Shown: piece after piece, positions 25,222 to 47,522 of the stretch
Position numbering within the stretch: the stretch's first letter is position 1
Layout of the letters: each line of letters begins with the position of its first letter
Assembly (NCBI GenBank): GCA_035524075.1
Contig: DATKPP010000069.1
Coordinates: 3,414-67,413, forward strand
Direction of reading: 5' to 3'
DNA: 64,000 nt
DNA from: Steroidobacteraceae bacterium
GTDB taxonomy: Bacteria; Pseudomonadota; Gammaproteobacteria; Steroidobacterales; Steroidobacteraceae
Notes under the pieces: generated by a model
Database searches by the model: none
What the model saw: the letters and a program-made list of their open reading frames with translations, nothing else
Told to the model about the DNA's origin: nothing
Translations under genes and position numbers: made by a program

Positions 25222-28200
25222 CTAGAAGGAGGCCTTCAACCCGAGGAAGAACGTCCGTCCATAGATGTCGTAGCCCATCGCTGGGTTGGTCTGTCCCACC
25301 CCATCGTTCGGGATCGCGTATGCACCCGGGTTCAGACAGCCGAGCTTGGTCTCGGCAGCCGTGCAGTACGTGTCGAGGGGCTTGCTGGTCGGATAGCCCG
25401 CCGTCGCAGCGGTGCTGGGTGGATTCTTGCCGAAGATGTTATCGATACCGCCGCGGATCTGGAGGATCTTGTTGATCGTCCAGGTGCCGCTCAGGTCGAA
25501 CTCGTTCCAGGCCGGAGCTGCGATCGTGTTGTCGGGGAACCAGTTGAGGAGAGTTCCCTTGCCCGTGGCGAGCACAGTCTCGTTGTTCTGGATCACGCCC
25601 TCCTGCGTCGCCTTGGTGATCGTGTTCACCGAGGGCAGGAATCGCCAGCCCAGATTGACGCTCCACGAGGGCAGCACCCAACCGATGTTACCCGTCAGAC
25701 GATAGCCGAATGCGCCTGGGTTGGTACCCGCAAGGTTGGGGCCCTGAGAATCCTTCCAGTTGGTATCCACGTCGAAGCTGAACGGGGACGCCTTCGTCTT
25801 GTAATAGTCGAGGAAGGTATCCAACGTCGAGATGGAGAGCGCACCGGGAATCTTCAGCCCGAGGTCCTGGAACTGAGCGACCCAGGTGACACCCACGTCT
25901 ACGCCTGCGATGCCGATCGTCGCCAGGTTGTTGTATTGCTCCAGGAGGGTCGTCGTGCCACCCGTTGTGAGGTTGCGAGCGGCCTCCTGGCAAGCCGGGG
26001 TTGCAGCCTGTGCTGCGGCCTGAGCGGCGGTCGTGACGGTGGTCACCCCGTAGCAGAGGTAATTGGCCTCATCGGGCGAGTTGAGCTCGATGGCGTGATT
26101 GATATCGATCTGCCACCAGTCCACCGAACCGCTCAGTCCGGAGATCCAGGGGCTATCACCCAGGTTGTTGAAGGTGAAGCCGCCAGTCCAGGTGTTCGCC
26201 GTCTCGGGCGACAGGTGCGAGTTACCCTCCTGGTTGAGCCAGTCGAACACCTCCGCCTCTGCATCCGTTGCCTGGTTGCCCGTGGTTCCGTAGTAGTAGC
26301 CTGCGGCACCCATGCCGACGCCACCGTTCGCCGTTGAGGGTGCGGTGCCGCCCATCTGCGCCTGGCAGATGAGGTAGGTGCTCTGCGCCCCGGCAGCGGT
26401 CTGGCCTGAGGCAAGGTGGGTCGGCGAGCCAGTGGCGGAGCCGCTTCCGCTGTAATCGGGTGCCGCACCGCCGGCGCCGAAGGGCGCAGGCGAGCGAACC
26501 GAGCACGGATCGCCAAAGACGGGTCCCGGAATGCTGAAGTACTCCTGCGCACCGAGGTACAGCTCGGCGAGGTTCGGGGCGCGCACCGCGTGGTTGTAGC
26601 CACCACGGATATGGAACGACTTGGTCACCTGCCATTCGGGACTGATCTTGTAAGTCTTGGCGTCGGGGATACCGTTCGAGAATACGGAGTAGCGACCGCC
26701 GATGTCCACGCTCAGCTTCTCGAAGAACTTCACATCAGAGAGGAGAGGTATGAAGACCTCCGCATACCCGTCAGTGTCGTAGATCTCCTGGTTCGTGACA
26801 CCCAGGGGATACAGGCCAATGCTCTGGTCGAGGAAAGAGTTTGTTGACTGCAGGTTGTCCGGTTGGAACTGGCCGGCATCGCGGCGCTCCTCCCAACCTA
26901 CCGCGGCGCTGACATCCCCCGCCGGCAGCTTGAACACCGTACCGTTGAAGTCCGCCTCCACATCGTCCTGCTGTATGGCTGTTTCGGTCTGCAGCACCGA
27001 TCCAAAGGCATTTGAGCAGTCCGCGCTGGGCGCGACCCCGTAGTTGAAGATCGTGCCGTACATGCCGCTCGAGCAGGTGCTGGGGACCGTCGTGCCGAAC
27101 CCCGTCGAGGCGCCCTGCTGGTTGCCGACGAACAAGTCGCCGTTGCCGCCGTAATCAGGCGCGTCGATGACGGACCGGAAGCGCTCGAGGGACAGATTGC
27201 CCAGACCCTGCTCGTAGTCGAGCGTCTCGCCGCGGGAGTAGTAGACATCCCCCGTCCAGTCAGCGAACAGCGGGAACTTGAATCCCGTGGTGATCTGGAA
27301 CATCTCATCCTGATCCACCGTCGTGCGTTGCGGCCCGGTGGTTTGGGGCAGGTAGTCGAGTATCCAGCTGCTGGCGTTCTTGCCTGAGTTCGCCACACCC
27401 GGGGTGCCGGCGACATAGTTGGAACCGCCGACGCAATCTGCGTTGATGGCAGCGGAGACGCCGTTGCTGCAAGTGACACCGTTGCCATAGAAGGTGCTGG
27501 TATAGGCCCCCGGTCCAAAGACGAGGCCAGCCAAGAAGTTGTAGGCACCCGGATAGCCGAAGGCCGGGCCCGCTTGAACGAGGGATCGACTCAGCAGCAT
27601 CGCCGCCAGCGACCAGGGAACCGGGTGCTGGGCGCCCGGCTTGTTCGGAGCGATGAAACCTGGATTCCAGTATGGGTTACAGGACACGCTCGTGCAGTTC
27701 GGGTTGTTCTTGAAAGCATTGGCGATCGCTGTGGCCGTTGCCGCGGTGCTGGACGGGTTCAGATCCGCGGGATTGATCGGGCTATCGGTCGTCGGGTTGA
27801 ACGGTACGCTCGCCTCCCAGCCAAAGATGGCGGTGGTGGGCGTGTCAAGAAGCGTCGTGGTCAAGCTGTCCGCATAGCGTGACGTCATGTAGAACTGGAC
27901 GTTCTCAGTGATGTCGTAGCTGCCGTTCGCGAAGAACGAGTAGCGAGTTTGCGGAATGCTGATCTGCGCGTACGGATTGTTCCATCTTTCGGTCTGAATC
28001 GTGCCGGGTGGCGGGCAAGCGGGGGTGTTGCATTCCGTCGTGTCGTAGGCATTCACCACGCCGTATCCACCGTTCGCCATGGGGTTTGAGGTGCTGCCCG
28101 TCCAACCGCTCACGCCGATCGGAAGTATGGTGGATCCGAAGGTGCCGTTGGGCTGGAAGAAGAAATCACCGAGGACACAACCGGAGAAACCGCACACCCC

Positions 28201-29211
28201 ATTCGGATGCGAGGCGCTACCGGCCACATAACCCGCACTGGTTGCCGCGGGGAACAGAGAACTGAGCACGGCCTGGCTCGGTTCGTCGAGTCCGGGGGAG
28301 TAGGCGTTGTACCCCTGCGTGAACAGCGCCAGCGTCGATGGCATCGTCGCGTTGGGGTCGTACCAGTTATTGGTGTAGAAGGAGTGGTCCTTCGCATACG
28401 CGGCCCCGCGGTTGTAGTACTCGAGGCCCATGAGGATGCTGCCCTTGCCGTCGGCGATCTTGGTGCCGATCAAGCCGTCGACCCGAGTCTCGTTGCCGTC
28501 GCCGGCCTGGTCCACGCCGTCCTGAACGTCGATCTGCGCGCCCTCGAAGTTCTTCTTGAGCACGATATTGGTGACACCACCCATGGCGTCCGCGCCGTAC
28601 ACGGCCGATGCGCCGCCGGTGATGGTCTCGATGTGGTCGATTGCGGCTTCAGGGATCGTGTTGAGGTCCACGTCCATCAGAAGATTGACCGGATCCGCCC
28701 GATGGCCATCGACCAGCACCAAGCTGCGGTTGGCGCCCAGGCCACGCAGCGAGACGGTCGATATGCCGGGGGTGTTGGTCGGCGACGGCTGAACATCGTT
28801 GGGCTCGGTCACCGGCGACTGCGCAACGTTGTATTGCGGCAGCTGGTTCAGATATGTCACCACGTCCGTGCTCGAGTGGCTTTCGAGCTGCGCTGCATCG
28901 ATGGTGACGAGGGGGCTGGTGGACTCCAGGTCCCGGCGCCGGATGCGCGAGCCGGTCACCGTGATCTCCTCGAGGGGGGGCTGAGCTGCCGGGGCGGTAG
29001 CCGGGGCTGCCTGGGTCGGACCTGCCGCAGCCTGGTTGGCCGAGGCGCCCTCGGACTGCTGGGCGAAGGCTTGCCCGGACCACGCAAGCGAGACCGTCAC
29101 GGCACAAAGCGCTGCGAGCGCGGACGCTCGAGACAGGTGTGAATCGATCGTCGTAAAAACGCTACGCACCGCACGTGCCATTGCGGCGACCGACTGGCAA
29201 GCAGAGACCAT
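25222..29211 (-). CDS. TonB-dependent receptor (very large, about 1329 aa)
   Basis: AGAGGGGGG RBS before ATG 29211. Signal ...SLAWSGQAFAQQ. Plug LEEITVTGSRIRRRDLESTSPLVTIDAAQL. Motif IETITGGASAVYGADAMGGVTNIV. C-terminus FFLGLKASF. The track ORF extends to 29286. Confidence 0.9.
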   Translation of the reverse strand: MVSACQSVAAMARAVRSVFTTIDSHLSRASALAALCAVTVSLAWSGQAFAQQSEGASANQAAAGPTQAAPATAPAAQPPLEEITVTGSRIRRRDLESTSPLVTIDAAQLESHSSTDVVTYLNQLPQYNVAQSPVTEPNDVQPSPTNTPGISTVSLRGLGANRSLVLVDGHRADPVNLLMDVDLNTIPEAAIDHIETITGGASAVYGADAMGGVTNIVLKKNFEGAQIDVQDGVDQAGDGNETRVDGLIGTKIADGKGSILMGLEYYNRGAAYAKDHSFYTNNWYDPNATMPSTLALFTQGYNAYSPGLDEPSQAVLSSLFPAATSAGYVAGSASHPNGVCGFSGCVLGDFFFQPNGTFGSTILPIGVSGWTGSTSNPMANGGYGVVNAYDTTECNTPACPPPGTIQTERWNNPYAQISIPQTRYSFFANGSYDITENVQFYMTSRYADSLTTTLLDTPTTAIFGWEASVPFNPTTDSPINPADLNPSSTAATATAIANAFKNNPNCTSVSCNPYWNPGFIAPNKPGAQHPVPWSLAAMLLSRSLVQAGPAFGYPGAYNFLAGLVFGPGAYTSTFYGNGVTCSNGVSAAINADCVGGSNYVAGTPGVANSGKNASSWILDYLPQTTGPQRTTVDQDEMFQITTGFKFPLFADWTGDVYYSRGETLDYEQGLGNLSLERFRSVIDAPDYGGNGDLFVGNQQGASTGFGTTVPSTCSSGMYGTIFNYGVAPSADCSNAFGSVLQTETAIQQDDVEADFNGTVFKLPAGDVSAAVGWEERRDAGQFQPDNLQSTNSFLDQSIGLYPLGVTNQEIYDTDGYAEVFIPLLSDVKFFEKLSVDIGGRYSVFSNGIPDAKTYKISPEWQVTKSFHIRGGYNHAVRAPNLAELYLGAQEYFSIPGPVFGDPCSVRSPAPFGAGGAAPDYSGSGSATGSPTHLASGQTAAGAQSTYLICQAQMGGTAPSTANGGVGMGAAGYYYGTTGNQATDAEAEVFDWLNQEGNSHLSPETANTWTGGFTFNNLGDSPWISGLSGSVDWWQIDINHAIELNSPDEANYLCYGVTTVTTAAQAAAQAATPACQEAARNLTTGGTTTLLEQYNNLATIGIAGVDVGVTWVAQFQDLGLKIPGALSISTLDTFLDYYKTKASPFSFDVDTNWKDSQGPNLAGTNPGAFGYRLTGNIGWVLPSWSVNLGWRFLPSVNTITKATQEGVIQNNETVLATGKGTLLNWFPDNTIAAPAWNEFDLSGTWTINKILQIRGGIDNIFGKNPPSTAATAGYPTSKPLDTYCTAAETKLGCLNPGAYAIPNDGVGQTNPAMGYDIYGRTFFLGLKASF

Positions 29212-29457
29212 TGATGAACCCCCCTCTTTGTGGGCATTGAGGTCGCACGAGCTCCCACCCGGGCGGCCGACCAAGCCTGGCTTCACGAATAGCTATCGGT
29301 TACGCGCTGTCCTTGGCTCCCTGCCTGGGGCGCGTGCACGAAATGGCGAGAAAAGCTGGAGAGGGATGCCGAGATGGGCATGCGCCGGGACCCCGGCCCA
29401 AGCATTGCACACGCAACGCACCCACCTGCGTCTTTCGACGACCACCATGTCCCCCTT

Positions 29458-29684: not shown

Positions 29685-30671
29685 GTGCGTGACGCGGCGG
29701 AAAAGACCACGGATCTGCTGGATTACGAGATCTTCGCGCGCGTGATCAAGGCCGGAAGCCTCTCGGCCGCGGCCCGCGAGATGCACTCCTCACCCGCCAT
29801 GATCTCCAAGCGCGTGACGCGCCTCGAGGATCGGCTGGGCGTTCGGCTCCTCCAGCGCACGACCCGCCGCGTGACCCCAACCGATATTGGTCAAAGCTTC
29901 TACGAGCGGGTGCTCAACGTGCTGGCGGCGGTCGAGGATGCCGAGAACTTCGCAACCGTCGACTCCGAGCGCCCGCGGGGACTGCTGCGGGTGTCGCTCC
30001 CCACCGCCTTCGGCCGGCTCCATGTCGCACCACGTTTGAAGAGCTTCCTGGAGCTTTATCCGGAGCTGCGTCTGCTCGTGGACCTCAACGACGACTATGT
30101 GGACTTGGTGGCCGGGAGCTTCGATGTCGCCGTGCGCATCGGCACCCTTCCCGACTCGAGTCTCGTCGCCCGACGGCTGGCGGCGAACCGGCGCGTGCTG
30201 TGTGCCGCTCCCGAATATCTCGAGGAGCACGGCGAGCCGCGGGACCTGGCGGATCTGCAGCACCATCGGCTGCTGTCCGCGGCCCCGCAGCTGACCTGGA
30301 GACTGGATGGACCCGCCGGCCTTGTGAGCTTCAAGCCGCAGAGCATTCTGCAGACCAACTCGAGCGAGGTCGTGCGCGAGGCTGTCGTCAGCGGACTTGG
30401 CATCGGGTTTCGCTCGACCTGGGATGTGAGCAACGAGCTCAAGCGCGGCGTTCTCAAGCGGGTCCTGCCCGCCTACTGCGGTGCCTCCGATGTCGCCATC
30501 TATGCGGTGTATTCCGGCCGGCGACTCGTTCCCGTCAAGGTCCGAGCCTTCGTGGACTACCTGGTGGGCATCTTCGGACCCGAGGCGCCCTACTGGGACC
30601 GTGACATCGCCTCCCCGCCGCATCGGCCGGAGCCGCACTCGACCGGGAACGGCGCGGTGCGCGCGGCATAA
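29685..30671 (+). CDS. LysR-family transcriptional regulator
   Basis: HTH region LLDYEIFARVIKAGSLSAAAREMHSSPAMISKRVTRLEDRLGVRLLQRTTRRVTPT plus a LysR substrate-binding domain. Start uncertain: GTG 29685, ATG 29628 or GTG 29607. Confidence 0.9.
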   Translation: MRDAAEKTTDLLDYEIFARVIKAGSLSAAAREMHSSPAMISKRVTRLEDRLGVRLLQRTTRRVTPTDIGQSFYERVLNVLAAVEDAENFATVDSERPRGLLRVSLPTAFGRLHVAPRLKSFLELYPELRLLVDLNDDYVDLVAGSFDVAVRIGTLPDSSLVARRLAANRRVLCAAPEYLEEHGEPRDLADLQHHRLLSAAPQLTWRLDGPAGLVSFKPQSILQTNSSEVVREAVVSGLGIGFRSTWDVSNELKRGVLKRVLPAYCGASDVAIYAVYSGRRLVPVKVRAFVDYLVGIFGPEAPYWDRDIASPPHRPEPHSTGNGAVRAA

Positions 30672-30778
30672 ACCGCCCCTTGGCCGTCGCTCGCTTTGCT
30701 TCGGAGCGCGCTCCGGCGCGTGACCGAAGTCCCTCTGCTACACTTGCACCGCGTTCCAACCTGAAGGGGAGTTAGAAG

Positions 30779-31252
30779 ATGAATCGGGTTTCGAAGCTGG
30801 GTTGCGCGGCCCTGTCCGTTGCGGCGATCTCGATCGCCTTCGCGCAAAATGGACCGCCGAACCCGCAGCAGCGGGCTGAAATGGCCCTCAAGGTCCGCCA
30901 GGGTTTATTCGATGTGCAGTCCTTCGCCTTCGCACCGGTCGGCGCGATGCTGAAGGGAGCTCCCTTCAATGCGGACGCTGCGGTCACCGCGGCGAAGCGC
31001 ATTCAGGTCACGGCGTCGATGATTCCCGACGTCTTCAAGGACGACACGAGCAAATTCACCCTGAAGACGCGCGCGCGCGCGGGCATCTGGACCAACATGG
31101 CCGACTTCACCCAGAAGGCCCACGATCTGCAGCAAGCAGCCGCTGGCCTGGAGATGGCCGCGATGACGGGCGACAAGGCCGAGACGATGAAGGCCGCAGT
31201 TGCCGTCGGCAAGTCCTGTGGCGCCTGCCACGACGAGTACCGCGAGAAGTAA
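30779..31252 (+). CDS. Cytochrome c-prime (class II c-type cytochrome)
   Basis: Signal peptide, four-helix-bundle-length protein (157 aa), single C-terminal haem motif KSCGACHDEYREK. GGGGAG RBS. Confidence 0.8.
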   Translation: MNRVSKLGCAALSVAAISIAFAQNGPPNPQQRAEMALKVRQGLFDVQSFAFAPVGAMLKGAPFNADAAVTAAKRIQVTASMIPDVFKDDTSKFTLKTRARAGIWTNMADFTQKAHDLQQAAAGLEMAAMTGDKAETMKAAVAVGKSCGACHDEYREK

Positions 31253-31260
31253 GCGACGTT

Positions 31261-31296
31261 GCCGGCGCGCTCACCTTGGCGGGTGAGCGCGCCGGC
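31261..31296. terminator. 15-bp perfect GC-rich hairpin between convergent cytochrome c-prime and cytochrome b561 genes
   Basis: gccggcgcgctcacc-ttggcg-ggtgagcgcgccggc. No T-run on either side. Confidence 0.5.
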
Positions 31297-31307
31297 ACAG
31301 ATCCTGC

Positions 31308-32078
31308 CTAATCGAAGTTGAGGGTGTCCGCCGAAACATGCGGCGCACCACTCAAGACTGCGTACACCGCCGCCGCGCTCAGGATCATCACGATCAGTGC
31401 CTTCCAGAGCTCCGAGCTCGTGATGGCCTCCCCCGCCGGAACCCCCTCCGCGGGCTTCCAGCCCGTCAGCATCGCGGGTACCAGATTCTGCTTCTTCACG
31501 AACGCGTAGTAGCTGATGGCTCCGACGTGCAGCGCGATCGCCGCCCAGATCAGATTGAAGTTCCTGTGGTGTAGGCTGGTCAGGAGCCTTGCGGTCTCGG
31601 AGCTCACGCTGGGGTTGTAGGGACCGGTCCAGACGATGTCGTCGGTGGCAAACAGCCCCGTTCCCACCTGGAACGCCACCAGCAACAGCATGACGAGCAC
31701 CATGATGCCGCCGAGCGGGTTGTGGCCCGCGCTATGGAGTGGACTCTCGCGGCCCAGGAACCCTCTTGCGTACCGCCAGGTGGCGCGCGGACCGCGTAGA
31801 AAGCTCGCAAAACGAGCGTGGCGCGGGCCTACGAGGCCCCAGATGATGCGGAACGTGAGGAGTCCCAGCATCCAGTAGCCCAGCCGAATGTGCCATTGCA
31901 TCCAGGACGACCCCGGCTCGGCAGTGAGCCAGGAGGCCAGAATGCTCGCTGCAAACAGCCAGTGAAACGCGCGCAACGGCAGGTCCCAAACCAGCCGCCG
32001 TTCCGCTGCGGAAGTCCCGGCAGCCGCGGAGGGCCCTTCGGCCGTTTGCACGGGAGCGATGTTCGCTTCGGTACTCAT
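31308..32078 (-). CDS. Cytochrome b561 / Ni-Fe-hydrogenase-type b cytochrome family membrane protein
   Basis: ATG 32078, 5 nt after the ankyrin gene stop. LRAFHWLFAASILASWL, WHIRLGYWMLGLL, HNPLGGIMVLVMLLLV and LHHRNFNLIWAAIALHVG give four TM helices with conserved His. The track ORF 31308..32303 is over-extended. Confidence 0.8.
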   Translation of the reverse strand: MSTEANIAPVQTAEGPSAAAGTSAAERRLVWDLPLRAFHWLFAASILASWLTAEPGSSWMQWHIRLGYWMLGLLTFRIIWGLVGPRHARFASFLRGPRATWRYARGFLGRESPLHSAGHNPLGGIMVLVMLLLVAFQVGTGLFATDDIVWTGPYNPSVSSETARLLTSLHHRNFNLIWAAIALHVGAISYYAFVKKQNLVPAMLTGWKPAEGVPAGEAITSSELWKALIVMILSAAAVYAVLSGAPHVSADTLNFD

Positions 32079-32083
32079 GGATC

Positions 32084-33673
32084 CTAAAGTGTCCGATTGG
32101 GCCCCTGCGGGGCGGTCAGGTTGCTCGCCACCATGAGCTGGCGCAGCAGATTCGCAGTGTCCTGATGCACATCGGGCGTTCCTCGCCCGTGGACGATGGC
32201 GCGGCCCATGGCCGCATCGATGGGCGTCATGCCGCGCGCATCCTTTGCATTGAGATCGGCGTGGTGCGAGACCAGGCAGCGCACCACATCGTTCCAGCCC
32301 CACGAGGCGGCCCCGTGCAAAGCCGTATCCCCATGATAATCGGCGGCATTGATTTGAGCCCCCTTGCCGAGCAGCAGCTCGATCGTGGTCACCGCTTCGG
32401 GCTGTGTCTTGTACTTGCCGCGAGTATCCACGCTCGTCGCGCCGATGCCGGCTGCGGCCATGAGCGGTGTTGCGCCGAAGCGGTTCGGTAAAGAGGGGTC
32501 AGCGCCATGCTCGAGCAGCAGGCGAATGGCTGCCGCATCCCCCGCACGTGCCGCGCGCAGCAGCGCCGTGGCGCCCGTGGTCAACATGCCGTCACCGCCG
32601 CGGTCCGCGCCGAGTGACCGGTAAGGCGGAAAGAGCTTCAGTTGCGCGTTCGGATTGGCGCCGGCATCGAGCAGCAGCTCGATCATCTTCAGGCTCGTCG
32701 TCGCATCGAGCGAGATGTGATCCGGGCGGCCTCCGTAGGGAAGTGTGTTGAGATCCACGGCGGCATACAGCGGGGTGCGGCCCCAGAAGTCCCAGATGTT
32801 CGGGTTCGCGCCCTTCCTCAGGAGGTAGGCGGCCAGATCGAAGTGGAAGTTCTCGGTGGCGACCAAGAGCGGCGTCTCACCGTCCGGATCGGTCATGTTG
32901 GCGTCGGCGCCGCCCCCGAGCAGAGCCTGCGCACACTCGAGACAGCCCTGCCGCGCCGCATAGATCAGCGGGGTGAATCCTCCGGTGGGGCGTGCCTGCA
33001 CGCGCGGCTCGGCCGTCACCTGACGCTGGAAGGTATCGAAATAGGAGCGCACATTGGGATGGGCGCCGTGGCGCAGCAGCAGCTTCACCATGGCCGCCTG
33101 ACTGCGCGCGGCCGCCCAGTGCAAGGCGGTCTGCCCGCGCCACTTCTCGCGCGCATTGACGTTGGCCCCGTGGCGGATGAGAAGCTCCGCTGCGGCAAGA
33201 TTGCTCGTGCGTGCGATGATCATGAGCGCGGTCTGTCCGTCCGCGTTCGGCGATTCGACGTCGGCTCCGGCAGCGAGCAGCTTGCCGATCACGCCCGGAT
33301 CGCCGAACTGGGCGGCCTCGGACATCGCGGAGGCCCCGAACTGGTTGATCAGACGCACGCTCGCGTGAGCGCGCAGCAATCGATCGATGAGCGGCGTCTC
33401 ACCATAGTGGATCGCCCACAGGAGCGCCGTCGTGCCATCCGGCGCGCGCGCATTCACATCGGCGCCGTGGTCGAGCAGGGTGATTGCTTGCGAGACCTCC
33501 TGATCCCTCGCGAGCTGCACGAGCTGCGGCGTTGCGTTGTCCCGCACACGCGCGATCGGGCTCGCGGCCGGCACACTCGCAGCGTTCGCAAGGCCCACCC
33601 CGACGGCGCACGCGGCCACCCAAACTCCGGCCCCCTGCAAGCACTGCGCAAGTCGTGCAATCGCAAGCTTCAT
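32084..33673 (-). CDS. Exported ankyrin-repeat protein (cassette 1)
   Basis: Signal-peptide-like N-terminus. About 10 or more repeats of the G.TALH.AA..G....V..LL..GA..N type (e.g. DGQTALMIIARTSNLAAAELLIRHGANVN). Start ATG lies 3 nt after the upstream stop. Confidence 0.85.
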   Translation of the reverse strand: MKLAIARLAQCLQGAGVWVAACAVGVGLANAASVPAASPIARVRDNATPQLVQLARDQEVSQAITLLDHGADVNARAPDGTTALLWAIHYGETPLIDRLLRAHASVRLINQFGASAMSEAAQFGDPGVIGKLLAAGADVESPNADGQTALMIIARTSNLAAAELLIRHGANVNAREKWRGQTALHWAAARSQAAMVKLLLRHGAHPNVRSYFDTFQRQVTAEPRVQARPTGGFTPLIYAARQGCLECAQALLGGGADANMTDPDGETPLLVATENFHFDLAAYLLRKGANPNIWDFWGRTPLYAAVDLNTLPYGGRPDHISLDATTSLKMIELLLDAGANPNAQLKLFPPYRSLGADRGGDGMLTTGATALLRAARAGDAAAIRLLLEHGADPSLPNRFGATPLMAAAGIGATSVDTRGKYKTQPEAVTTIELLLGKGAQINAADYHGDTALHGAASWGWNDVVRCLVSHHADLNAKDARGMTPIDAAMGRAIVHGRGTPDVHQDTANLLRQLMVASNLTAPQGPNRTL

Positions 33674-33676
33674 GGA

Positions 33677-35008
33677 TCAGATCTCGGCGATCGTGCCGGT
33701 GCTATCGCCGAGCTTCTCGATCGGCATCCCGATGCGCTGCATGAGCGTCAGCCACACGTTCGCAAGCGGCGTGTGCTCCGGATACTTCAAGTGCTGGCCG
33801 CCTTTGATCGCTCCACAGCCGCCCCCCACGATCGCGGTCGGCAACGGGTACTGATTGTGCGCGTTGCTGTTGGCCATGTTGCTCCCGTACACGATGATCG
33901 AATGATCGAGCATCGAGCCGTCCCCATCGGCAGTGGCGGCCAGGCGCTTGAGGAAGGCCGCAAGCTTCTGTGAGTGATACGTCTGGATCTTCACGAGCTT
34001 GGCGATCTTCACCGGGTCGCCCTGGTGGTGCGAGACGGGGTGGAAGGCATCCGGCACACCGATGAACGGATAGGTCATGTTGCTCACCTCGGCCGCCATC
34101 ATCATCGTGGCAATGCGGGTGAGATGCGCCTGGAATGCGAGCGCGATCAGGTCGAAGATCAGCGCCTGCTGCTCGGGGAAGCGATCGGGAATACCGATTG
34201 GAGCTGCGGGCAGCTTGAGCTGGGAGAGGTCCTGATGCTCCATCTTCTGCATGCGCCGCTCGATCTCGCGCACGCTGTCGAGGTAGTCGGCCAGCACCGC
34301 CTGATCGCGCGGTCCGAGCCGTGTCTTGAGGGAGGCGGCATCCTCGCTCACCATGTCAAGGATGCTGTCGTACTGCTGACCGAGCGCCCTGCGCTCCTCG
34401 GGCGTATCGCCGCGGCCAAACAGCCTTTGAAAGACCGTCCGTGGGTTGTACTCCATCGGTAGCGGCATCGTCGGCTTACGGAAGGCGATCGTTCCGGAGT
34501 AGCTGCATCCGTAGGCTCGGTCGCAGGATCCACCACCGCCCGCGCCCTCGGTCTTCACCTCGAGCGAAGGAAGCGGTGTGTCCTGGCCGATGTGCTGCGC
34601 CGCCATCTGATCGATCGTAACCCCGCCATAGGGGTCCTGGCTCTCGCGCGGATGCACGCAGGAGAGCCACGTGCCCGGAACGATCGCATGCACGGCGGCG
34701 CTCTCGGCGGGCTTGTTGCCGAGGTTCGTCACGACGATCAGCTGCTTCTGGAAGGGCTCGAGCGGCTGCAGGATCGTCGAGAGCTTGAACTCGCGGTCGA
34801 TCCCCTGCGGGGTCCACTGATCGTTGTCGGGGAACATGATGGCCCCGTGCGGGAAGTAGACGAAGGCGAGCTTCATCTGCGGTGCCGCTGCCGTCTTGGC
34901 GAGCGCCGTCCCGGCGGGGACCATCGCATCGAGCAATGGCAACGCCACGGACGCGCCGACTCCGCGCAACACGGTTCGCCTGGAGATGTGCTTCTTGCTG
35001 ATGAACAT
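33677..35008 (-). CDS. DUF1552-type protein with twin-arginine signal (cassette 1)
   Basis: N-terminus MFISKKHISRRTVLRGVGASVALPLLDAMVP is the signature start of proteins annotated DUF1552. 443 aa. Confidence 0.75.
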   Translation of the reverse strand: MFISKKHISRRTVLRGVGASVALPLLDAMVPAGTALAKTAAAPQMKLAFVYFPHGAIMFPDNDQWTPQGIDREFKLSTILQPLEPFQKQLIVVTNLGNKPAESAAVHAIVPGTWLSCVHPRESQDPYGGVTIDQMAAQHIGQDTPLPSLEVKTEGAGGGGSCDRAYGCSYSGTIAFRKPTMPLPMEYNPRTVFQRLFGRGDTPEERRALGQQYDSILDMVSEDAASLKTRLGPRDQAVLADYLDSVREIERRMQKMEHQDLSQLKLPAAPIGIPDRFPEQQALIFDLIALAFQAHLTRIATMMMAAEVSNMTYPFIGVPDAFHPVSHHQGDPVKIAKLVKIQTYHSQKLAAFLKRLAATADGDGSMLDHSIIVYGSNMANSNAHNQYPLPTAIVGGGCGAIKGGQHLKYPEHTPLANVWLTLMQRIGMPIEKLGDSTGTIAEI

Positions 35009-35035
35009 CTTGGTCAGTCCTCGCCTGCCCCACGC

Positions 35036-37489
35036 TCAGTTGGGCTTACCCGCCTGAGGTATCGCAGCTTGGGTGGTCATCAAATCCGGTCGATCGTTGC
35101 CGGCGCCCGGCATGCGCTTCATCTCGAACTGCGGGCTCTCGATGATGCCGAGCACGATCGAGGAGAAGCGATACTGGTCCTGCGCGGCGGTGCGCACGAT
35201 GGCCCGTACGGTGGGCATGTCGTGGTAGTCGAGCGTGCGTCCGAGCGCGAACGTCATCAGCTTCTCGGTGAGAGTCTGGACGAAGCGCTCCGGGTTTCTC
35301 ATCAGCGCGCTGCGCAGATCATCCGGTCCTTTCACCTCACTGCCATCCGCCATCTGCCCCGTCGCATCGATCGGAAGTCCCGCGTCGCGGTCCTTCCACT
35401 GCCACTGCCCCATGGCATCGAAATTCTCGAGCGACAGCCCGATCGGATCCATGATCCCGTGGCAGGCGTTGCAGGAGGGCTGACGCCGGTGCATCACCAT
35501 GCGCTCGCGAATGGTCAGCTGAGCGGCGCCGGGCACATTCTCCTTCAGTGCCGGCACGGCAGGGGGCGGAGCATGCGGCGGAGTCCCGGTGATCACATCG
35601 AGCACCCACGCGCCGCGCAGCACGGGCGCCGTGCGGTTGGCGTACGAGGTCCCCATCAGAAGTGCGCCCTTGCCGAGCAGCCCATCGCGCCTGGAGTCGG
35701 GCAGCAGGACGCGCCGGAACTGCGCCCCCTGCACGTTCGGGATGCCGTATGCCAGCGCGAGCCGCTCGTTGACATAAGTCCAGTCTGCGGTCATCAGCTT
35801 GCGCACGTCGAGGTCGGCCAGGAGCACACTGTCGAGAAACAGACGCATCTCCTCGCGATAAGCCGAGCGCAGGTCCTCGTCGAACTCGGGATACTCGACC
35901 GGGTCGGGCTCGATCTTGTCCATGCTGTCCACCTCGAGCCACTGGAACGCAAAGTTCGTGACCAGCGATTCGGCGCGCGGATCGGTCAGCATGCGATGCA
36001 CCTCCCGCTCGAGCACGCCGGGATCGTGCAGCTTCCCGGCCGTGGCGAGCTTGAGAAGCTCGTCGTCCGGTCCCTCGCTCCAGAGGAAGAACGACAGACG
36101 CGAGGCCAGGTCGAGATCGCTGATCCGATAGATCCCGCCGACCTTGACCGCCGGCGGCGTGAGCTCAGCGCGGTACAGGAACTTGGGACTGCAGAGGATC
36201 GCGACGATGGCGCTCTGGATGCCTGCATCGAAGGTCTTGCCCTGGCGCCCGGCCGCGAAGAAGCGCATCGGAGCGGCAAGATCCGCATCGGTCACCGCGC
36301 GGCGGTACGCGGTGCGTGCGATCCTGCCGAGAATCTGTCGTGCGCAGGGCTCCTCATCCGCCGGTCCGCCGGGCTCGCAGACGAAGATCTTCCGTCGGCT
36401 GGGGGTCTCGCTGATGCCGCTGGGGTCGTACGGCCCCGTGATCTGCAGCCCGCCGATCCGCGCAATCCGATCCTCCCCGCCGCGCACGTTGTAGGGAAAG
36501 AGCGATTCGTCGGATTCGGCAAAGGTTCGCGCGATGAACGCCACGCCGACACGGTGAGGCCCGGCGGGAACGTGCACGCGGATGTGCTCGAAGCGCGCCT
36601 TGAGGTCCTTGGCGGAGTCGATCGGGTGCTGATCGGCCTCCTTGAGATCCTTCTCGCCACCGAGGGAGCGCTCGAAGACGCTCTGGTCGTCGATGGTCAG
36701 CACGACATCCTGCGGCTGATCGAGACCCACGATGTAGCCCACTCCGCTGAACACGTTCAGATCGAAATCGTAGTCCCCATCGGCGGGAAAATAATGCGTG
36801 ACCACCATGCCCCCGCGGGTTCCAAGGGGCAGGCCCTCGATGTGGAAAGCCTGGTCCTCCTTGCCGGCGCGATACACCGCGATGGCCTTGGGGGGATGCG
36901 GGTTGCCGATGGCGAGCTCGGCGATCGTGCGGGCCGCAGAGATGTATTGATCGAGGAAGGTCGGCGACACCTTCAAAACATCGGCGATGTTGTCGAAGTC
37001 ATCGCTCTTGGTCTCCTTGGGCAGCAGGGACGAAACGTCGAACGTCACATCCAGCATCTGCTCGACCGAGCGCGCGTACTCCGTACGGTTCAGACGATGC
37101 AGCACGACGTAGCCGGGGTCCGGGTGCATGGCGGCTGCGGCATCCAGATGGCCCTCCATCCAACGCAGGAAGGCATCCACCGTCGCCTGTGCCGGCTGCT
37201 TCTGGCCCGGCGGCGGCATCATGCGCCCGCTGAGCTTGGTGACCGCTGCCTCCCAGATCTTGGCATCGCCGGGGATGTCCCCCGGCTGCATCGTCCCGAA
37301 GGCGATGCCGCCCGCCCAGTCATCCGTGTTGTGACATTTCTCGCAGTAGGCGTTCAGCATGTGCCAGTAGGGCTTGGCCTGCGCGTCGGTCGCAGCCCCC
37401 GGCGGCAGCGGCGCGGAGTTGCCCGCGAAAGCCCCTGCGGGGATCGAGGCCACAGCGAGCGCTGCAGCCGCAAGGAGATGACGTCCCAC
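35036..37489 (-). CDS. DUF1592/DUF1588/DUF1585-type di-haem c protein (cassette 1)
   Basis: GTG 37489 overlaps the upstream TAG by 1 nt. Signal peptide GRHLLAAAALAVASIPAGAFA. Haem motifs YCEKCHNTDDWAGGIAF (37331-37345) and SCNACHGIMDPIGLSLENFD (35459-35473). The track ORF extends to 37792, overlapping the MBL gene. Confidence 0.75.
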   Translation of the reverse strand: MGRHLLAAAALAVASIPAGAFAGNSAPLPPGAATDAQAKPYWHMLNAYCEKCHNTDDWAGGIAFGTMQPGDIPGDAKIWEAAVTKLSGRMMPPPGQKQPAQATVDAFLRWMEGHLDAAAAMHPDPGYVVLHRLNRTEYARSVEQMLDVTFDVSSLLPKETKSDDFDNIADVLKVSPTFLDQYISAARTIAELAIGNPHPPKAIAVYRAGKEDQAFHIEGLPLGTRGGMVVTHYFPADGDYDFDLNVFSGVGYIVGLDQPQDVVLTIDDQSVFERSLGGEKDLKEADQHPIDSAKDLKARFEHIRVHVPAGPHRVGVAFIARTFAESDESLFPYNVRGGEDRIARIGGLQITGPYDPSGISETPSRRKIFVCEPGGPADEEPCARQILGRIARTAYRRAVTDADLAAPMRFFAAGRQGKTFDAGIQSAIVAILCSPKFLYRAELTPPAVKVGGIYRISDLDLASRLSFFLWSEGPDDELLKLATAGKLHDPGVLEREVHRMLTDPRAESLVTNFAFQWLEVDSMDKIEPDPVEYPEFDEDLRSAYREEMRLFLDSVLLADLDVRKLMTADWTYVNERLALAYGIPNVQGAQFRRVLLPDSRRDGLLGKGALLMGTSYANRTAPVLRGAWVLDVITGTPPHAPPPAVPALKENVPGAAQLTIRERMVMHRRQPSCNACHGIMDPIGLSLENFDAMGQWQWKDRDAGLPIDATGQMADGSEVKGPDDLRSALMRNPERFVQTLTEKLMTFALGRTLDYHDMPTVRAIVRTAAQDQYRFSSIVLGIIESPQFEMKRMPGAGNDRPDLMTTQAAIPQAGKPN

Positions 37490-38469
37490 TAGACCACTCC
37501 TCGCATCTCGCGCACGTGTGCGTAGAGCCCACGATAGGTGTTCTCGACGAAGAGGCTCGGACTTCCCCACGCGGGATCGAACTTGCGGGTCGCCCCTGCA
37601 GCGATCATGTCGTCCGCGCCGTAGCCCTTGCGCATCAGCTGCCAGAGATTTTCCTTGAGCGTGGCCAGCATCTCGTGCTCGGCTGCCAGCGCCGCGCGCG
37701 TCTGAACCGGTCCAACCCCGGGCACGATTCGCGTCTTGTCGTCGCTGATCTCGAGAAGCTTCTGCGTAGCATCGGCCATGCCGCCGATCCATCCGCCCGT
37801 GCAGTAATCGAGGATCGGGTATTGCCCGACCGAAAGCACGCAGCCGGCGACGAGCACATTCCGTTCACGCAAATGCACGTAGATGTCTCCGTCGGTGTGA
37901 GCCTGCGGAAGGTAGCCGTACTGGATGGTTTCCCCGCCGAAAGTCAGCGTACGTTCGCCGCCGTAGAAGGTCTCGGTGGGCCAAGCCTCGCGTGGACGAG
38001 GCTCGTAGGTTCGGTTCTGCCATTCTTCCCAGATCCGTGCGCCGAGCCACAGGCGGGTGTTCTCGTGCGCGATGATGCGAGCGCCGCTCTTGCGCACGAG
38101 ATCGTTGCCACCCGTGTGCTCCCAGTGCCAGTGGGTGTTGAAGAGGGTATCGATGCGCCGCCCGCCAGGCAGGTCCGAAACAGTGCGCAGCAGATCGTGC
38201 GCGCGATCCGGTGAGCCCGAATCGATGAGCAGCACGCCCTCGGGGCCGCTCAACGCGACGACATTCCCCCCCGCACCCGACACGATGGCCAGGTGATCAT
38301 CAAGAGCCGTGACCGCCAGGCGTCCGGAGCGCGTGCCGGGCCGAGCTGTCTGCACCGGGAGCGTGTCGGGATTGGAGCGTGCGTGGGCCGCTCGGCTGAG
38401 CCACGCAGATGCCGCAAGGCCGCTGGCCCCGCCCACGAGAGTCTTGAGAAACTTCCTGCGGCCCGACAT
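37489..38469 (-). CDS. Tat-exported metallo-beta-lactamase-fold protein (cassette 1)
   Basis: MSGRRKFLKTLVGGASGLAASAWLSRAAHA Tat signal. MBL motif variant THWHWEHTGGN (38116-38133 encodes HWHWEH). Later motif AHTDGD. Confidence 0.8.
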   Translation of the reverse strand: MSGRRKFLKTLVGGASGLAASAWLSRAAHARSNPDTLPVQTARPGTRSGRLAVTALDDHLAIVSGAGGNVVALSGPEGVLLIDSGSPDRAHDLLRTVSDLPGGRRIDTLFNTHWHWEHTGGNDLVRKSGARIIAHENTRLWLGARIWEEWQNRTYEPRPREAWPTETFYGGERTLTFGGETIQYGYLPQAHTDGDIYVHLRERNVLVAGCVLSVGQYPILDYCTGGWIGGMADATQKLLEISDDKTRIVPGVGPVQTRAALAAEHEMLATLKENLWQLMRKGYGADDMIAAGATRKFDPAWGSPSLFVENTYRGLYAHVREMRGVV

Positions 38470-38544
38470 CTCCTGCCTCGCCCGCTACCAAACCTCCTGC
38501 TTTTCAGGGGTTTTCACCGCGACGGGTAACATATGCGCCCCAAC

Positions 38545-38565
38545 CGGTCAACGCACCAGTCTCGG
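38545..38565 (-). promoter_or_regulatory. Candidate shared cis-element upstream of cassette 1 (CCGAGAC-N5-CGTTGACCG on the operon strand)
   Basis: Plus strand cggtcaacg-cacca-gtctcgg, 76-96 nt upstream of the MBL start. The same two blocks occur at 47472..47490. The reverse complement contains a TTGACC -35-like hexamer. Confidence 0.25.
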
Positions 38566-38708
38566 GGGGCAGTTCCCGCAGGATCAAGTGCACGCTGCGC
38601 ATTACGGGCATGCCTGTGTCGCGGAGGAGCCCGCTTCGCTAAGATGCCGCAGCTGCGCCGCAGTGAGCTTGGCGCGCTCCACCGCTTGACATCACCGGGG
38701 AATCATTG

Positions 38709-40049
38709 ATGCCGGAGGCTGCCGCCGTTGGCTCCTCAGCGATCAGCCGCTCGCAGTGGCGCACGATCGTGCTCTCGAGCTTGGGCGGTGCGCTCGAGTT
38801 CTACGACTTCGTCATCTACAGCACGTTCGCCCAGTACATCGGGGATGCGTTCTTCGCCCCGGCGAAGAGCCCCCTCGTCGGCTTGATGCTCTCCTACTCG
38901 GTGTTCGCGCTGGGATACGTGCCGCGTCTGGTGGGCGGCATCATCTTCAGCCATTTCGGCGACAAGTACGGCCGCCGCCGCGTCTTCATCTTCTCGATCC
39001 TCATGATGTCCTCGGCCACGCTTGCGCTGGGGCTGCTGCCGAGCTACGCCCGATGGGGCACCGGGGCCACCGCCGGAGTGATCATCCTGAGGCTCATCCA
39101 GGGGTTCTCGCTCGGGGGGGAGCTTCCCGGCGCGATCACTTATGTCGTGGAGACCGCTCCGCAGCGCGCGGGCTTCTCCTCGGGCTTCATCTTCTTCTGT
39201 GTCAACACCGGCGTCGCCCTCGCCTCCGCGGTGGGCTTCGCGGTCGTGAAGCTGCTCGATCCGGTGCAAGTGGCGCAGTGGGGATGGCGGATTGGATTCC
39301 TGGTGGGCGGGCTTCTCGGGCTCGTGAGCTTCTGGCTCAGGCTATCCCTCTCGGAGACCGAGGAGTTCAAGAAGCTGCGTCACAAGGCCTCGAGACACCC
39401 CATTGTCGATCTCCTGCGCACCGCACCCGCCGCAACCGTCTTTGCGGTCGCGGCCATGGTCGCGAGCGCCGGATTCAATGGTCTGCTCTTCGCGATGCCA
39501 ACCTTCATGCAGCGTGTAATGCACCGCACCTACCTCGAGGGGATCGAGGCACAGAACATCGGATTGCTCGTCCTGTCTTTCTGCATGCTCCTCACGGCGT
39601 GGCTGAGCGATCGGATCCCCCGGCGCTGGATCCTGGCAGCCGGGGCGGCGCTGCTCGCCGCGTTCTCCTTCCCCTTCTTCGATGCCGCGGCGGGGCACAT
39701 GGTCCGGCTCATTCCGATCTTCATCGGCGCCGGACTGGCCGCCTCGCTCTGCAACGGCCCCATGGCCGGGATCGTCGCGGACCTCTTCCCGACGCGCATC
39801 CGCTTCAGCGGCGTCGCCGTCTCGTTCAATCTCGCTTTTTCCTTATTCAGCGGCACGGCCCCCCTGATCGCGACCGTCCTGGTCAGCAGCACGGGCTCGC
39901 CCACCGGACCGGCCTACTTCATGGTCGGCTGCGGGGTCATCACCTTCCTCGCCATGCTGTTCATCAAGCCTCACGAAGGCCGCATCCTCGGCGAGCCCGT
40001 AGAATCGACCTCCAGCGTGGCTGCGGCGCGATCTTTTCCGGCTCAGTGA
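38709..40049 (+). CDS. MFS transporter, metabolite:H+ symporter (MHS) family
   Basis: GGALEFYDFVIYSTFAQYIGDAFF and FGDKYGRRRVF are typical of the ProP/KgtP/ShiA-type MHS family. About 12 TM segments. Confidence 0.85.
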   Translation: MPEAAAVGSSAISRSQWRTIVLSSLGGALEFYDFVIYSTFAQYIGDAFFAPAKSPLVGLMLSYSVFALGYVPRLVGGIIFSHFGDKYGRRRVFIFSILMMSSATLALGLLPSYARWGTGATAGVIILRLIQGFSLGGELPGAITYVVETAPQRAGFSSGFIFFCVNTGVALASAVGFAVVKLLDPVQVAQWGWRIGFLVGGLLGLVSFWLRLSLSETEEFKKLRHKASRHPIVDLLRTAPAATVFAVAAMVASAGFNGLLFAMPTFMQRVMHRTYLEGIEAQNIGLLVLSFCMLLTAWLSDRIPRRWILAAGAALLAAFSFPFFDAAAGHMVRLIPIFIGAGLAASLCNGPMAGIVADLFPTRIRFSGVAVSFNLAFSLFSGTAPLIATVLVSSTGSPTGPAYFMVGCGVITFLAMLFIKPHEGRILGEPVESTSSVAAARSFPAQ

Positions 40050-40138: not shown

Positions 40139-41779
<1,641 letters not shown>

Positions 41780-41797
<18 letters not shown>

Positions 41798-43444
41798 ACG
41801 GGCCGGCCCACTTGCGACCTGCGGGCGTTGCGCCCCAGCTGCGCCCGGAGCACGCCCTCTGCCGCCGCCCGTGATCTGGGAGCGCTGGGCTCCACCGACG
41901 CCGATCTGCCGGTGCGAGAGGTCCTCGGCAAAGATGAGCGGCGGATGGCCCGTCTTTGCAACGATGAACTGCGTGAGCAGCTTGATGGTGTCGGTCTTGG
42001 GCGTCGGCTGTGGCTCGAGGAAGGCGCGAATGTAGTTGCCTCGCGCGTAGTCGATGGGGCGCAGGCCGATGCGATCCGTCGCCTGCAGATCCGCACCGTC
42101 GGCGACGAGCAGCTTGACGGTGTCGTTCCAGCCCTGTTTCGCCGCGCTGTGCAACGCAGTCAGCCCGTCATCGGCATGGTCGGTGATGGTGCCGCCGGCC
42201 GCGCGCAGCAACCGTACGCACTGCGCGGCCTGCTCGTCCGTCTTGTAGCGGCCTCGGGTCGGGTTGAAGCTCTGCCCCATCCCTGCGGCGGCCATGAGAG
42301 GTGTCACGCCCTCGGCGTTCGGCAAATTCACCAGCGCGTGGTACTTGAGGAGGAGCTTCACGGAGTCGACGTCCCCCACCTTCGCGGCCAGCAGCAGCGC
42401 CGTTGCACCCGTCGAGAGCACCTGATCACCGCCGCGGTCAAACACACCGTTGCGGTAGGGGGGACGCAGCTTCAGCTGCAGGTTGGGATCGGCACCCTTG
42501 GCCAGCAGCAGCTCGGCGATCTGATACCCGGTCGTGTCGTCCGTGGAGGGCAGATCCGGCCGGCCCCCCGTCGGCAAAGTATTCATATCGATCGCGACAT
42601 AGAGCGGGGTGTCGCCGAAGACATCCCATCGATTCACGTCCGCGCCTGCGGAGATCAGGTACTTCGCCAGATCGAAGTGCATGTTCATCAGCGCAACCAC
42701 GAGCGGAGTGGTGTCGTCCGGGTCGAGCGAGTTGATGTCCGCGCCTGCCTCGACCAGATACCGCGCACACGCGATGCAGTTCTCACGCGCCGCGAAGTGC
42801 AGCGCCGTGAGACCGCCGACGTTCATGATCTTGGGCCGCCCCTCGGCCGTCACGCGTCGCTGCCAGTCGCGAACCACCGAGCGGACGTTCAGCTGAGCTC
42901 CGTGGGAGATCAGCAGCTTCACCATCTCCGGCTGCCGCTGGGCGGCTGCCCACATGAGCGCCGTCTGCCCGCCCCAGCTCTCCACTGCGTTGACGTTGGC
43001 ACCGTGACTGAGCAGCAGCTTCGCGGCCTCGACGTCGCCGGTGCGGGCGACGACCATCAGTGCCGTTTGTCCCTCGGGATTCGGCGAGTTCACATCGGCG
43101 CCGGCGTCGAGCAGCATCTTGAGGATGGGCGTGTTCGGCGTGACGGCCGCTTCCTGCATCGAGGAGTCGCCGTAATCGTTCATCGCGGACACATCGGCGC
43201 CCTTGCGAATGAGTGCCTGCGCCAGCGCCGCATCGCCGTTGTAGACGGCCCACATCAACGCGGTGGTGCCATCCGAGGAGCGAGCACGCACGTCGGCACG
43301 TTGCCCGAGCAGCGTCATCGCCCCCGAGTGATTGTTCGCCTTGGCTGCCTCGATGAGCGATGCGGAAGCATCCTGCGCGCGCGCGACGGCAAAACTCGCC
43401 GTGCCGAGCACGCTCGCGAGCAGCACGAGGAGGAAACGGCGCAT
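41780..43444 (-). CDS. Exported ankyrin-repeat protein (cassette 2)
   Basis: ATG 43444 (MRRFLLVLLASVLGTASFAVARAQ signal), 11 nt after the upstream stop. Collinear with the cassette-1 ankyrin protein. The 3' end overlaps the aceB 3' end by 18 nt. Confidence 0.85.
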
Positions 43445-43455
43445 GGTGGTTCCCT

Positions 43456-44775: not shown

Positions 44776-44781
44776 GGCTGG

Positions 44782-47490: not shown

Positions 47491-47522
47491 CGCGCGCCTT
47501 AGTCTCGAGTCGAGGTCGAGTC

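Follow-up and report, generated by a model that had tools for sequence, protein, structure and literature searches.

Introduction

Multidomain c-type cytochromes of the PSCyt3/PSD type are known from Planctomycetes and Verrucomicrobia, including Rhodopirellula baltica, where their genes lie next to genes for DUF1552 proteins, and nothing is known of the functions of these PSCyt and DUF1552 genes (He et al. 2017, PMC5615132). Fusions to carbohydrate-binding modules (CBMs) have been described in the DUF1592-type family (PMC5615132), and a CBM2-bearing member of the family from Cellvibrio was found in a lignocellulose-bound proteome (PMC6004670). Here we describe a DUF1592-type/DUF1552 gene pair in a stretch of 64,000 nucleotides from a Steroidobacteraceae bacterium (GenBank assembly GCA_035524075.1, contig DATKPP010000069.1, positions 3,414 to 67,413 of the forward strand), hereafter the window. 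The pair resembles those of Planctomycetes and Verrucomicrobia in Pfam architecture, adjacency and c-haem motifs. Here it occurs in Gammaproteobacteria, Acidobacteriota and Alphaproteobacteria and has two further partners that are unmentioned in that paper: a metallo-β-lactamase-fold (MBL) protein and an ankyrin-repeat protein carrying a CxxC motif. The core pair is thus the known, uncharacterised PSCyt3/DUF1552 pairing, and the MBL and CxxC ankyrin partners are newly described. In the literature searched, we found no description of these partners, of a spread into Proteobacteria and Acidobacteriota, or of a sulfatase-like fold with a rebuilt site.

A comparable arrangement is the pairing of PSCyt2 (DUF1549/DUF1553) with DUF1501, which likewise places a multidomain c-type cytochrome beside an uncharacterised family, although the Pfam families differ. 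DUF1501 proteins are exported by the twin-arginine translocation (Tat) pathway and are sulfatase-like. We know of no MBL or ankyrin partner for the PSCyt2/DUF1501 pairs.

An initial annotation of the window, made from the sequence, had proposed a five-gene operon in which a periplasmic enzyme complex built around the DUF1592/DUF1552 pair would be wired through a membrane cytochrome b561 to the quinone pool. We find instead a set of four genes that travel together, present in two copies in the window. That the copy at the annotated locus (copy 1) is a self-contained periplasmic module, with its proteins acting in the roles proposed below, is a reading to which we give about even chances.

Results

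The four genes of copy 1 encode, in order, the MBL-fold protein, the 817-aa DUF1592-type cytochrome c protein, the DUF1552 protein and the ankyrin protein, and the b561 gene follows (Table 1). All five minus-strand open reading frames (ORFs) of the initial annotation were recovered at the positions it gave. Direct reading also reproduced its junctions: a TAGTG overlap between the first two genes, 27 nt between the DUF1592-type and DUF1552 genes, TGAtccATG (3 nt) into the ankyrin gene, and TAGgatccATG (5 nt) into b561. The GTG start assigned to the 817-aa protein gives the same length as the NCBI annotation of an identical protein (P0122, 817 aa), and identical proteins (P0001, P0122) are annotated on a 341-kb contig of a Steroidobacteraceae metagenome-assembled genome.

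Hidden Markov model searches placed the two core proteins in the DUF1592-type and DUF1552 families as anticipated, and likewise returned Lactamase_B, Ank and Ni_hydr_CYTB for the other three. The domains PSD3, PSD5, PSD4, PSCyt3 and PSD2 of the 817-aa protein, which correspond to DUF1587, DUF1595, DUF1592, DUF1588 and DUF1585, scored 69–146 bits against cut-offs of 23–34 (E 5e-19 to 8e-43). The DUF1552 protein scored 281.9 bits with PF07586 (cut-off 30), the MBL protein 59.8 bits with Lactamase_B (cut-off 22.7), as expected of the fold, and b561 84.7 bits with PF01292 (Ni_hydr_CYTB; cut-off 30.1). The claim that every product is exported or seated in the membrane also held, with signals conserved among orthologues. 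A twin-arginine motif is present in 66/69 MBL orthologues (RRKFLK in copy 1) and in 84/85 DUF1552 orthologues (SRRTVLRG in copy 1), a Sec-like hydrophobic N-terminus in 70/76 DUF1592-type orthologues, and a Sec-like signal in 69/71 ankyrin orthologues.

Gene content was surveyed in two directions, and all surveyed loci come from metagenome-assembled genomes or metagenomes. The forward scan ran a DUF1552 alignment against one genome per GTDB species and took the best 80 of at least 597 matching places in species-representative genomes, these places being matches to two peptide patterns. The reverse scan ran an MBL alignment against metagenome contigs and took the best 80 matches. Identity was 51–80% for the DUF1552 loci and at least 44% for the MBL loci of the reverse scan. 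Neighbouring genes were detected by tblastn with the window proteins and counted only in loci with enough flanking sequence; because detection used coverage thresholds, the counts are lower bounds. The forward-scan loci comprise about 22 from Steroidobacteraceae, about 15 from Bryobacteraceae or other Acidobacteriota, 1 from Hyphomonadaceae and 1 from Rhodospirillaceae, the remainder being other Gammaproteobacteria or unresolved Pseudomonadota.

In the forward scan, the DUF1592 gene lies directly upstream of DUF1552 in 67/72 loci, the ankyrin gene follows within 3.2 kb downstream of DUF1552 in 57/66, and the MBL gene lies inside the module in 44/52. The complete four-gene set is present in 39 of the 52 fully flanked loci. 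Spacing is tight, with median gaps of 23.5 nt from MBL to DUF1592, 16 nt from DUF1592 to DUF1552, and 3 nt from DUF1552 to the ankyrin gene. The placement of the MBL gene with respect to its partners takes five forms, including upstream on the same strand (38), between DUF1552 and the ankyrin gene (17), upstream and divergent (5) and after the ankyrin gene (4), so that adjacency has been kept through rearrangement. In the reverse scan, 59 loci had enough flanking sequence to be judged, and in 56 of them a module gene lies within 700 nt of the MBL gene; of the three that differ, two are contigs that end 2 and 37 nt past the MBL gene. This MBL subfamily is therefore dedicated to the module. Among 1.84 billion clusters at 50% identity, 394 representatives of it were counted at E ≤ 1e-30.

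The MBL, DUF1592-type, DUF1552 and ankyrin genes are thus members of one module, which recurs in hundreds of bacteria from soil and fresh water, spread over Gammaproteobacteria, Acidobacteriota and Alphaproteobacteria. The initial annotation had predicted linkage of the MBL and ankyrin genes to the DUF1592/DUF1552 pair, and the counts from both scans bear this out. The same gene set in dozens of independent loci is more than chance: coincidental adjacency of genes that form no functional unit, contradicted by co-inheritance across three phyla, rearranged order, tight spacing and reciprocal specificity, has next to no probability. Some genomes carry two or three modules, some of them in tandem (L002, L004, L043, L071, L089, L092, L098). 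A Rosetta-stone search among long MBL relatives found no fusion to module partners and a single fusion, to DUF1684. At two loci (L006:7662-10002 and L162:2241-6140) the DUF1592, DUF1552 and ankyrin genes are split into several short ORFs; since these are long-read-style assemblies, the breaks are probably frameshift errors or pseudogenes.

The window itself contains a second, diverged four-gene set at 41780-48467, which the initial annotation had overlooked (copy 2; Table 1). The gap between its DUF1592-type and DUF1552 genes is 6 nt. Both copies are syntenic in relatives, and loci L001 and L084 start with an orthologue of the second ankyrin gene (Ank2). A malate synthase gene (plus strand, 40139-41797) is convergent with Ank2, and the 3′ ends of the two overlap by 18 nt (41780-41797).

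The claimed five-gene unit stands for its first four genes, and b561 drops out of it. Membership of the b561 family was as annotated; the count of four helices was not, since a fifth, C-terminal hydrophobic helix is probable. The b561 gene follows the ankyrin gene in 4/64 genome loci and 3/26 metagenome loci, all from the closest Steroidobacteraceae relatives of copy 1, and no b561 gene follows Ank2. In all of these loci a convergent cytochrome c′ gene comes after b561, with a LysR gene next wherever one was detected within the locus. The initial annotation had correctly placed both genes beyond b561 in the window, where both are plus-strand genes and thus converge on b561. LysR, cytochrome c′ and b561 are syntenic in L001, L006, L010, L014, L082, L087 and L161-L163, and three more b561 homologues (66–70% identity) carry the same cytochrome c′/LysR neighbours. 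In L006, L014 and L163 the b561/cytochrome c′/LysR trio is intact, and a TonB receptor gene, alone or together with a transposase, lies between it and the ankyrin gene. In evolutionary terms, b561 is part of a b561/cytochrome c′/LysR unit and a local neighbour of the module. A plasmid search with cytochrome c′, which looked for b561 linkage outside the family, gave one match only, without b561, and a PDB sequence search with b561 gave no matches.

A consensus scan of 30600-39000 for promoters and terminators returned no matches. A hairpin found by eye and by RNA folding lies between the b561 and cytochrome c′ genes (31260-31297; −41.3 kcal/mol, z = −6.1, with 0/200 shuffles folding equally well); it lacks a T-run, which is why the consensus scan missed it. 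It is likely a bidirectional terminator that ends the minus-strand unit. Given the 5-nt gap and the lack of a hairpin until after b561, co-transcription of b561 with copy 1 is likely here.

These observations bear on the arrangement first proposed for the locus, a five-gene redox complex passing electrons from the haem c protein through cytochrome b561 to the quinone pool. The b561 start 5 nt past the ankyrin stop codon, the uninterrupted run to the hairpin, and the ankyrin–b561 adjacency in L001, L005, L010, L021, L082, L084, L087 and L161 are what such a complex would predict. Its difficulties are the confinement of that adjacency to a few close relatives, the absence of b561 from copy 2, the trios that stand apart from the ankyrin gene, and the result of an unbiased clustering of all flanking ORFs, in which no other membrane cytochrome was recurrent beside the module. 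Wiring from haem c to haem b to quinone accordingly finds no support as a property of the system, and we regard the five-gene complex as quite improbable. A path of this kind is a lineage-specific possibility rather than part of the module's design.

The DUF1552 family is large (at least 8000 matches in our search), and its conserved residues in the orthologues of the module are unusual. Besides the twin arginines, H54, H107, H323, S326, H327, H328, H384, D133, D218, D235 and D368 are invariant, as is S103 in smaller alignments. In an AlphaFold2 model built with 48 sequences, the invariant His residues follow core strands. Sequence searches of the PDB with the single protein and with a 48-sequence profile gave no matches or two insignificant ones (E 0.24 and 0.66). 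When the model was searched against the PDB with Foldseek, the top 50 matches listed were sulfatases, LtaS and one protein from structural genomics, all of them members of the alkaline phosphatase superfamily, with a best E of 3e-4, a probability of up to 1.0 and TM scores of 0.35–0.42.

The predicted fold and C-terminal motifs of DUF1552 thus resemble those of type I sulfatases and the alkaline phosphatase superfamily (E. coli AslA and YdeN; LtaS). An hhalign comparison with AslA and YdeN, which at a probability of 2.3% serves to map motifs and proves nothing about kinship, placed the sulfatase motifs "SDNG" and "DLxPTxLxLAG" on residues 367-378 and 414-429, pairing LDHSIIVYGSNM with LDNTLIVFTSDNG and PLANVWLTLMQRIGMP with DLADLFPTALDLAGHP. 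Unlike sulfatases, DUF1552 has an additional invariant HxxSHH motif and a cytochrome c partner. On the same low-probability mapping, the acidic ligands are missing: after strand 1, Pro53-His54 stand in place of Asp-Asp, and Ser376 replaces the Asp of SDNG, with Asn377 kept. The formylglycine motif C/S-x-P-x-R is absent from DUF1552, and S103-x-x-x-H107, at a comparable distance from strand 1, may be its equivalent. The model would accordingly fit a sulfatase-like scaffold whose metal site has been rebuilt around His residues.

The initial annotation had claimed two haem-c motifs in the 817-aa protein, and both are there: CEKCH (residues 49-53; 37331-37345) and CNACH (residues 673-677; 35459-35473). 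Of the 76 DUF1592-type orthologues, 73 have both CxxCH motifs and at least 74 have the one in the PSCyt3 domain (CNACH in copy 1); haem attachment is predicted from the motif. Met91-Pro-Pro-Pro is invariant among these orthologues, as it should be if the N-terminus forms a class I cytochrome c domain, which we predict. PSCyt1, the N-terminal haem domain, and Cytochrome_CBB3 fall below the Pfam cut-offs here and are listed for many homologues.

The AlphaFold2 model of the DUF1592-type protein had a mean predicted local distance difference test score (pLDDT) of 80.8 and a predicted TM score (pTM) of 0.79. A Foldseek search with the full model returned weak jelly-roll matches of the CBM6, CBM35 and C1q types to a β-sandwich at about residues 200-360, and nothing for the large helical part in which the second haem would sit. 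A PDB sequence search with the protein gave one insignificant match (E 0.66). Cbp2D, a redox protein of Cellvibrio, was considered as a relative; literature on it was located, and kinship was not shown.

In the MBL protein of copy 1 (MBL1), the metal-binding motif reads H113-x-H115-x-E117-H118 (H-W-H-W-E-H), with H191 as a further conserved residue. Orthologues retain H113, H115 and H191; they have Asp or Glu at position 117 and His or Gln at position 118. Of the 69 orthologues, 38 have Asp, 25 have Gly and 2 have Cys at position 210, the equivalent of D/C221, and none has His at the position equivalent to H263. The conservation of H113, H115 and H191 and the variability of the others suggest that a three-His site is kept and that the second metal site is degenerate. 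In the MBL protein of copy 2 (MBL2) the motif reads H-W-H-P-C-Q with Gly at the D/C221 equivalent, and only the three-His site survives.

The best NCBIfam matches of the MBL protein were SoxH_rel_PQQ_2 (76.6 bits, cut-off 280) and SoxH_rel_PQQ_1 (42.6 bits, cut-off 300). Membership of the SoxH-related "quinoprotein relay system" families (TIGR04559/TIGR04558) was rejected at these scores, which lie far below the cut-offs. The protein does resemble SoxH-like MBLs of Sox and "ped" clusters (TIGR04558/TIGR04559; PP_2678), themselves uncharacterised, in being a Tat-exported periplasmic MBL encoded beside c-type cytochromes or dehydrogenases (PMC12997753). Unlike them, it falls below the family cut-offs, lacks H263, has a degenerate second metal site and sits among different neighbours.

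The ankyrin protein has two conserved cysteines, C244 and C247 (window 32933-32944), each present in 65/71 orthologues and likewise in Ank2. They form a CxxC motif, and their being the only conserved cysteines of the protein points away from a passive scaffold and towards a redox-active disulfide or a metal site. The protein also contains subfamily-specific inserts common to the copy 1 protein (Ank1) and Ank2. A lipoprotein assignment for Ank1, prompted by a lipobox-like VAAC string, was rejected since its Cys is not conserved.

Beyond the module genes, dehydrogenases dependent on pyrroloquinoline quinone (PQQ) are the commonest extra neighbours, with 28 ORFs within 10 kb at 21/80 loci, and PQQ dehydrogenase genes (PF01011) lie no more than 400 nt from the module in 9/80. 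Such genes occur at L012:4585-6621, L015:3083-5254, L023:4357-6510, L038:12260-14146, L051:13802-15706, L056:13037-15286, L067:7575-9473 and L078:12882-14762, among others. Most of these dehydrogenases contain a W-D-x-D string, which may resemble a lanthanide-type signature.

This neighbourhood and the MBL matches raise the possibility that the module is a relay or accessory for periplasmic PQQ quinoprotein dehydrogenases, from which the DUF1592-type protein would take electrons, with a SoxH-like MBL as in the quinoprotein relay system. The two best NCBIfam matches and the frequency of PQQ dehydrogenases beside the module fit this reading. The scores fall far short of the cut-offs, however, and at about three quarters of the loci, as at both window copies, such a dehydrogenase is missing from the 10 kb on either side; moreover, these genomes contain many PQQ dehydrogenase genes, so that some adjacency is to be expected. 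A role as a PQQ relay is therefore improbable.

TonB receptors are the next commonest neighbours, found at 10 loci and in the window. The genes that surround the two window copies encode two TonB receptors, transporters of the major facilitator superfamily (MFS), malate synthase, a LigAB-type dioxygenase and a luciferase-like monooxygenase. Such a setting looks more like that of catabolism linked to uptake than like that of respiration. One TonB-dependent receptor gene lies at 21075-24383. For the other, at 25222-29286, the longest ORF (1354 aa) has an implausible N-terminal extension, and the true start is probably downstream. An MFS transporter gene (MFS_1/Sugar_tr, 38706-40049) diverges from the MBL1 gene across 236 nt, an arrangement kept in the closest relatives (L001, L006, L014, L081, L082, L084, L087, L095 and L161). 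In one gammaproteobacterial subclade, genes for a DUF6152 protein and a protein of about 258 aa stand directly beside the MBL gene (L039:5099-6311, L044:5242-6486, L045:5317-6663, L037:5147-6365). Once cleaved at its predicted signal peptide, this DUF6152 protein would start with His-His (AAA|HHS), which recalls N-terminal-His metal sites.

The fold matches and the neighbours together raise a further explanation, hydrolytic nutrient scavenging, in which DUF1552 and the MBL protein would cleave sulfate or phosphate esters or related bonds in a substrate that has been imported, and the haems of the DUF1592-type protein would be structural or sensory and that protein binding or regulatory. Both predicted folds are hydrolase folds, TonB receptors and MFS transporters are neighbours, the presence of several diversified paralogues in one genome recalls families of catabolic enzymes, and PSCyt genes have been described near sulfatases and CBMs (PMC5615132). 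The residues at the putative active sites fit this explanation poorly: the canonical sulfatase and phosphatase ligands (Asp-Asp, C/S-x-P-x-R and the Asp of SDHG) are replaced in DUF1552, and the MBL protein lacks H263 and has Gly at the D/C221 equivalent in 25/69 orthologues. Two haem c sites and a Met ligand in 73/76 orthologues are likewise hard to explain without electron transfer. We consider a purely hydrolytic module unlikely.

Table 1. Features of the two module copies and of the region next to copy 1 (window positions)
Feature	Position	Strand	Remarks
MBL-fold protein, copy 1 gene 1 (326 aa)	37489-38469	minus	Lactamase_B E 4e-16; predicted Tat-exported
DUF1592-type di-haem cytochrome c, copy 1 gene 2 (817 aa)	35036-37489	minus	PSD3, PSD5, PSD4, PSCyt3, PSD2; predicted Sec-exported
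DUF1552/HXXSHH protein, copy 1 gene 3 (443 aa)	33677-35008	minus	PF07586 E 1e-83; predicted Tat-exported
Ankyrin-repeat protein, copy 1 gene 4 (529 aa)	32084-33673	minus	Ank E 3e-61; predicted Sec-exported
Cytochrome b561	31308-32078	minus	Ni_hydr_CYTB E 9e-24; probably co-transcribed, no conserved part of the module
GC-rich hairpin, perfect 16 bp	31260-31297	unstranded	between the convergent stop codons of b561 and cytochrome c′
Cytochrome c′ (class II cytochrome c)	30779-31252	plus	Cytochrom_C_2 E 4e-29; PDB cytochrome c′ matches to E 2e-14
LysR-type regulator	29700-30671	plus	upstream of cytochrome c′; HTH_1 and LysR_substrate; start codon uncertain, ORF opens at 29607
MBL2 (314 aa)	47523-48467	plus	divergent from the rest of copy 2; 43% identical to MBL1
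DUF1592-2 di-haem protein (837 aa)	44782-47295	minus	51% identical to copy 1; P0128 has the same Pfam set
DUF1552-2 (439 aa)	43456-44775	minus	PF07586 E 7.5e-83; 55% identical to copy 1
Ank2 (554 aa), with CxxC	41780-43444	minus	Ank E 1.6e-64; 52% identical to Ank1

Discussion

The four-gene set is observed directly in the survey, and the division of labour within it, as well as any redox chemistry, we infer from the properties of the proteins. In the reading that we favour, DUF1552 is probably the catalytic metal centre, its classical Asp ligands and nucleophile motif being replaced by invariant His, Ser and Asn. The DUF1592-type protein would probably bind the substrate through its CBM-like β-sandwich and carry electrons between DUF1552 and soluble periplasmic carriers, using the class-I-type N-terminal haem and the second haem. 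The MBL protein probably performs an accompanying hydrolytic or metal-dependent step, and the ankyrin protein is probably either a scaffold for the other proteins or the source of a thiol/disulfide function. The module would likely process an imported organic substrate, and its family appears to have diversified into several paralogues per genome.

A more specific version of this reading can be put forward tentatively, as a possibility that we think somewhat doubtful. In it, DUF1552 would be a new redox metalloenzyme with a His-rich site on an alkaline phosphatase/sulfatase scaffold, coupled to the di-haem cytochrome c, with the MBL protein and the CxxC ankyrin protein as obligatory partners.

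Several points weigh against the favoured reading. The MBL or the ankyrin gene went undetected in about 15% of the loci, and the survey, limited to the best 80 matches per scan, is silent on the distant planctomycete pairs, which fall outside it. The structure model of DUF1552 is moderate (pLDDT 65), the TM scores of its Foldseek matches are low, and so is the probability of the hhalign comparison. Because the alkaline phosphatase superfamily and MBL folds are classically those of hydrolases, a redox role for DUF1552 is a step beyond its fold. Interaction between the proteins, haem loading and a redox reaction are predictions from sequences and models, and no substrate can be named for the module.

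The Sox thiosulfate-oxidising system comprises the haem c protein SoxAX, the hydrolase SoxB and the MBL protein SoxH. Sox may offer an analogy, in that it too brings c-type cytochromes together with an MBL protein and a Tat-exported metallohydrolase in the periplasm. Beyond a weak similarity of the MBL proteins, the module appears to have no sequence relationship with Sox, and it seems to contain no SoxYZ carrier and no Mo enzyme.

The proposal in the initial annotation that no characterised function exists for the core families agrees with the literature searched for DUF1552 and the DUF1592-type/PSCyt families, in which we found none. For the wiring that it drew from haem c through b561 to quinone, the locus is a cautionary case, since that wiring is a local accident of gene order.

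Genes of the DUF1592 and DUF1552 types are abundant in soil bacteria, freshwater bacteria and bacteria of the Planctomycetes–Verrucomicrobia–Chlamydiae (PVC) group, and a defined four-protein set is now available for expression, metal analysis, complex prediction and genetics. If the proposed site is real, a His-rich sulfatase-like centre with a haem partner would be new chemistry for the alkaline phosphatase superfamily. Should DUF1552 indeed be a redox metalloenzyme of this kind, the "planctomycete-specific cytochrome" gene families, very large and known for two decades, would at last have a chemistry assigned to them.

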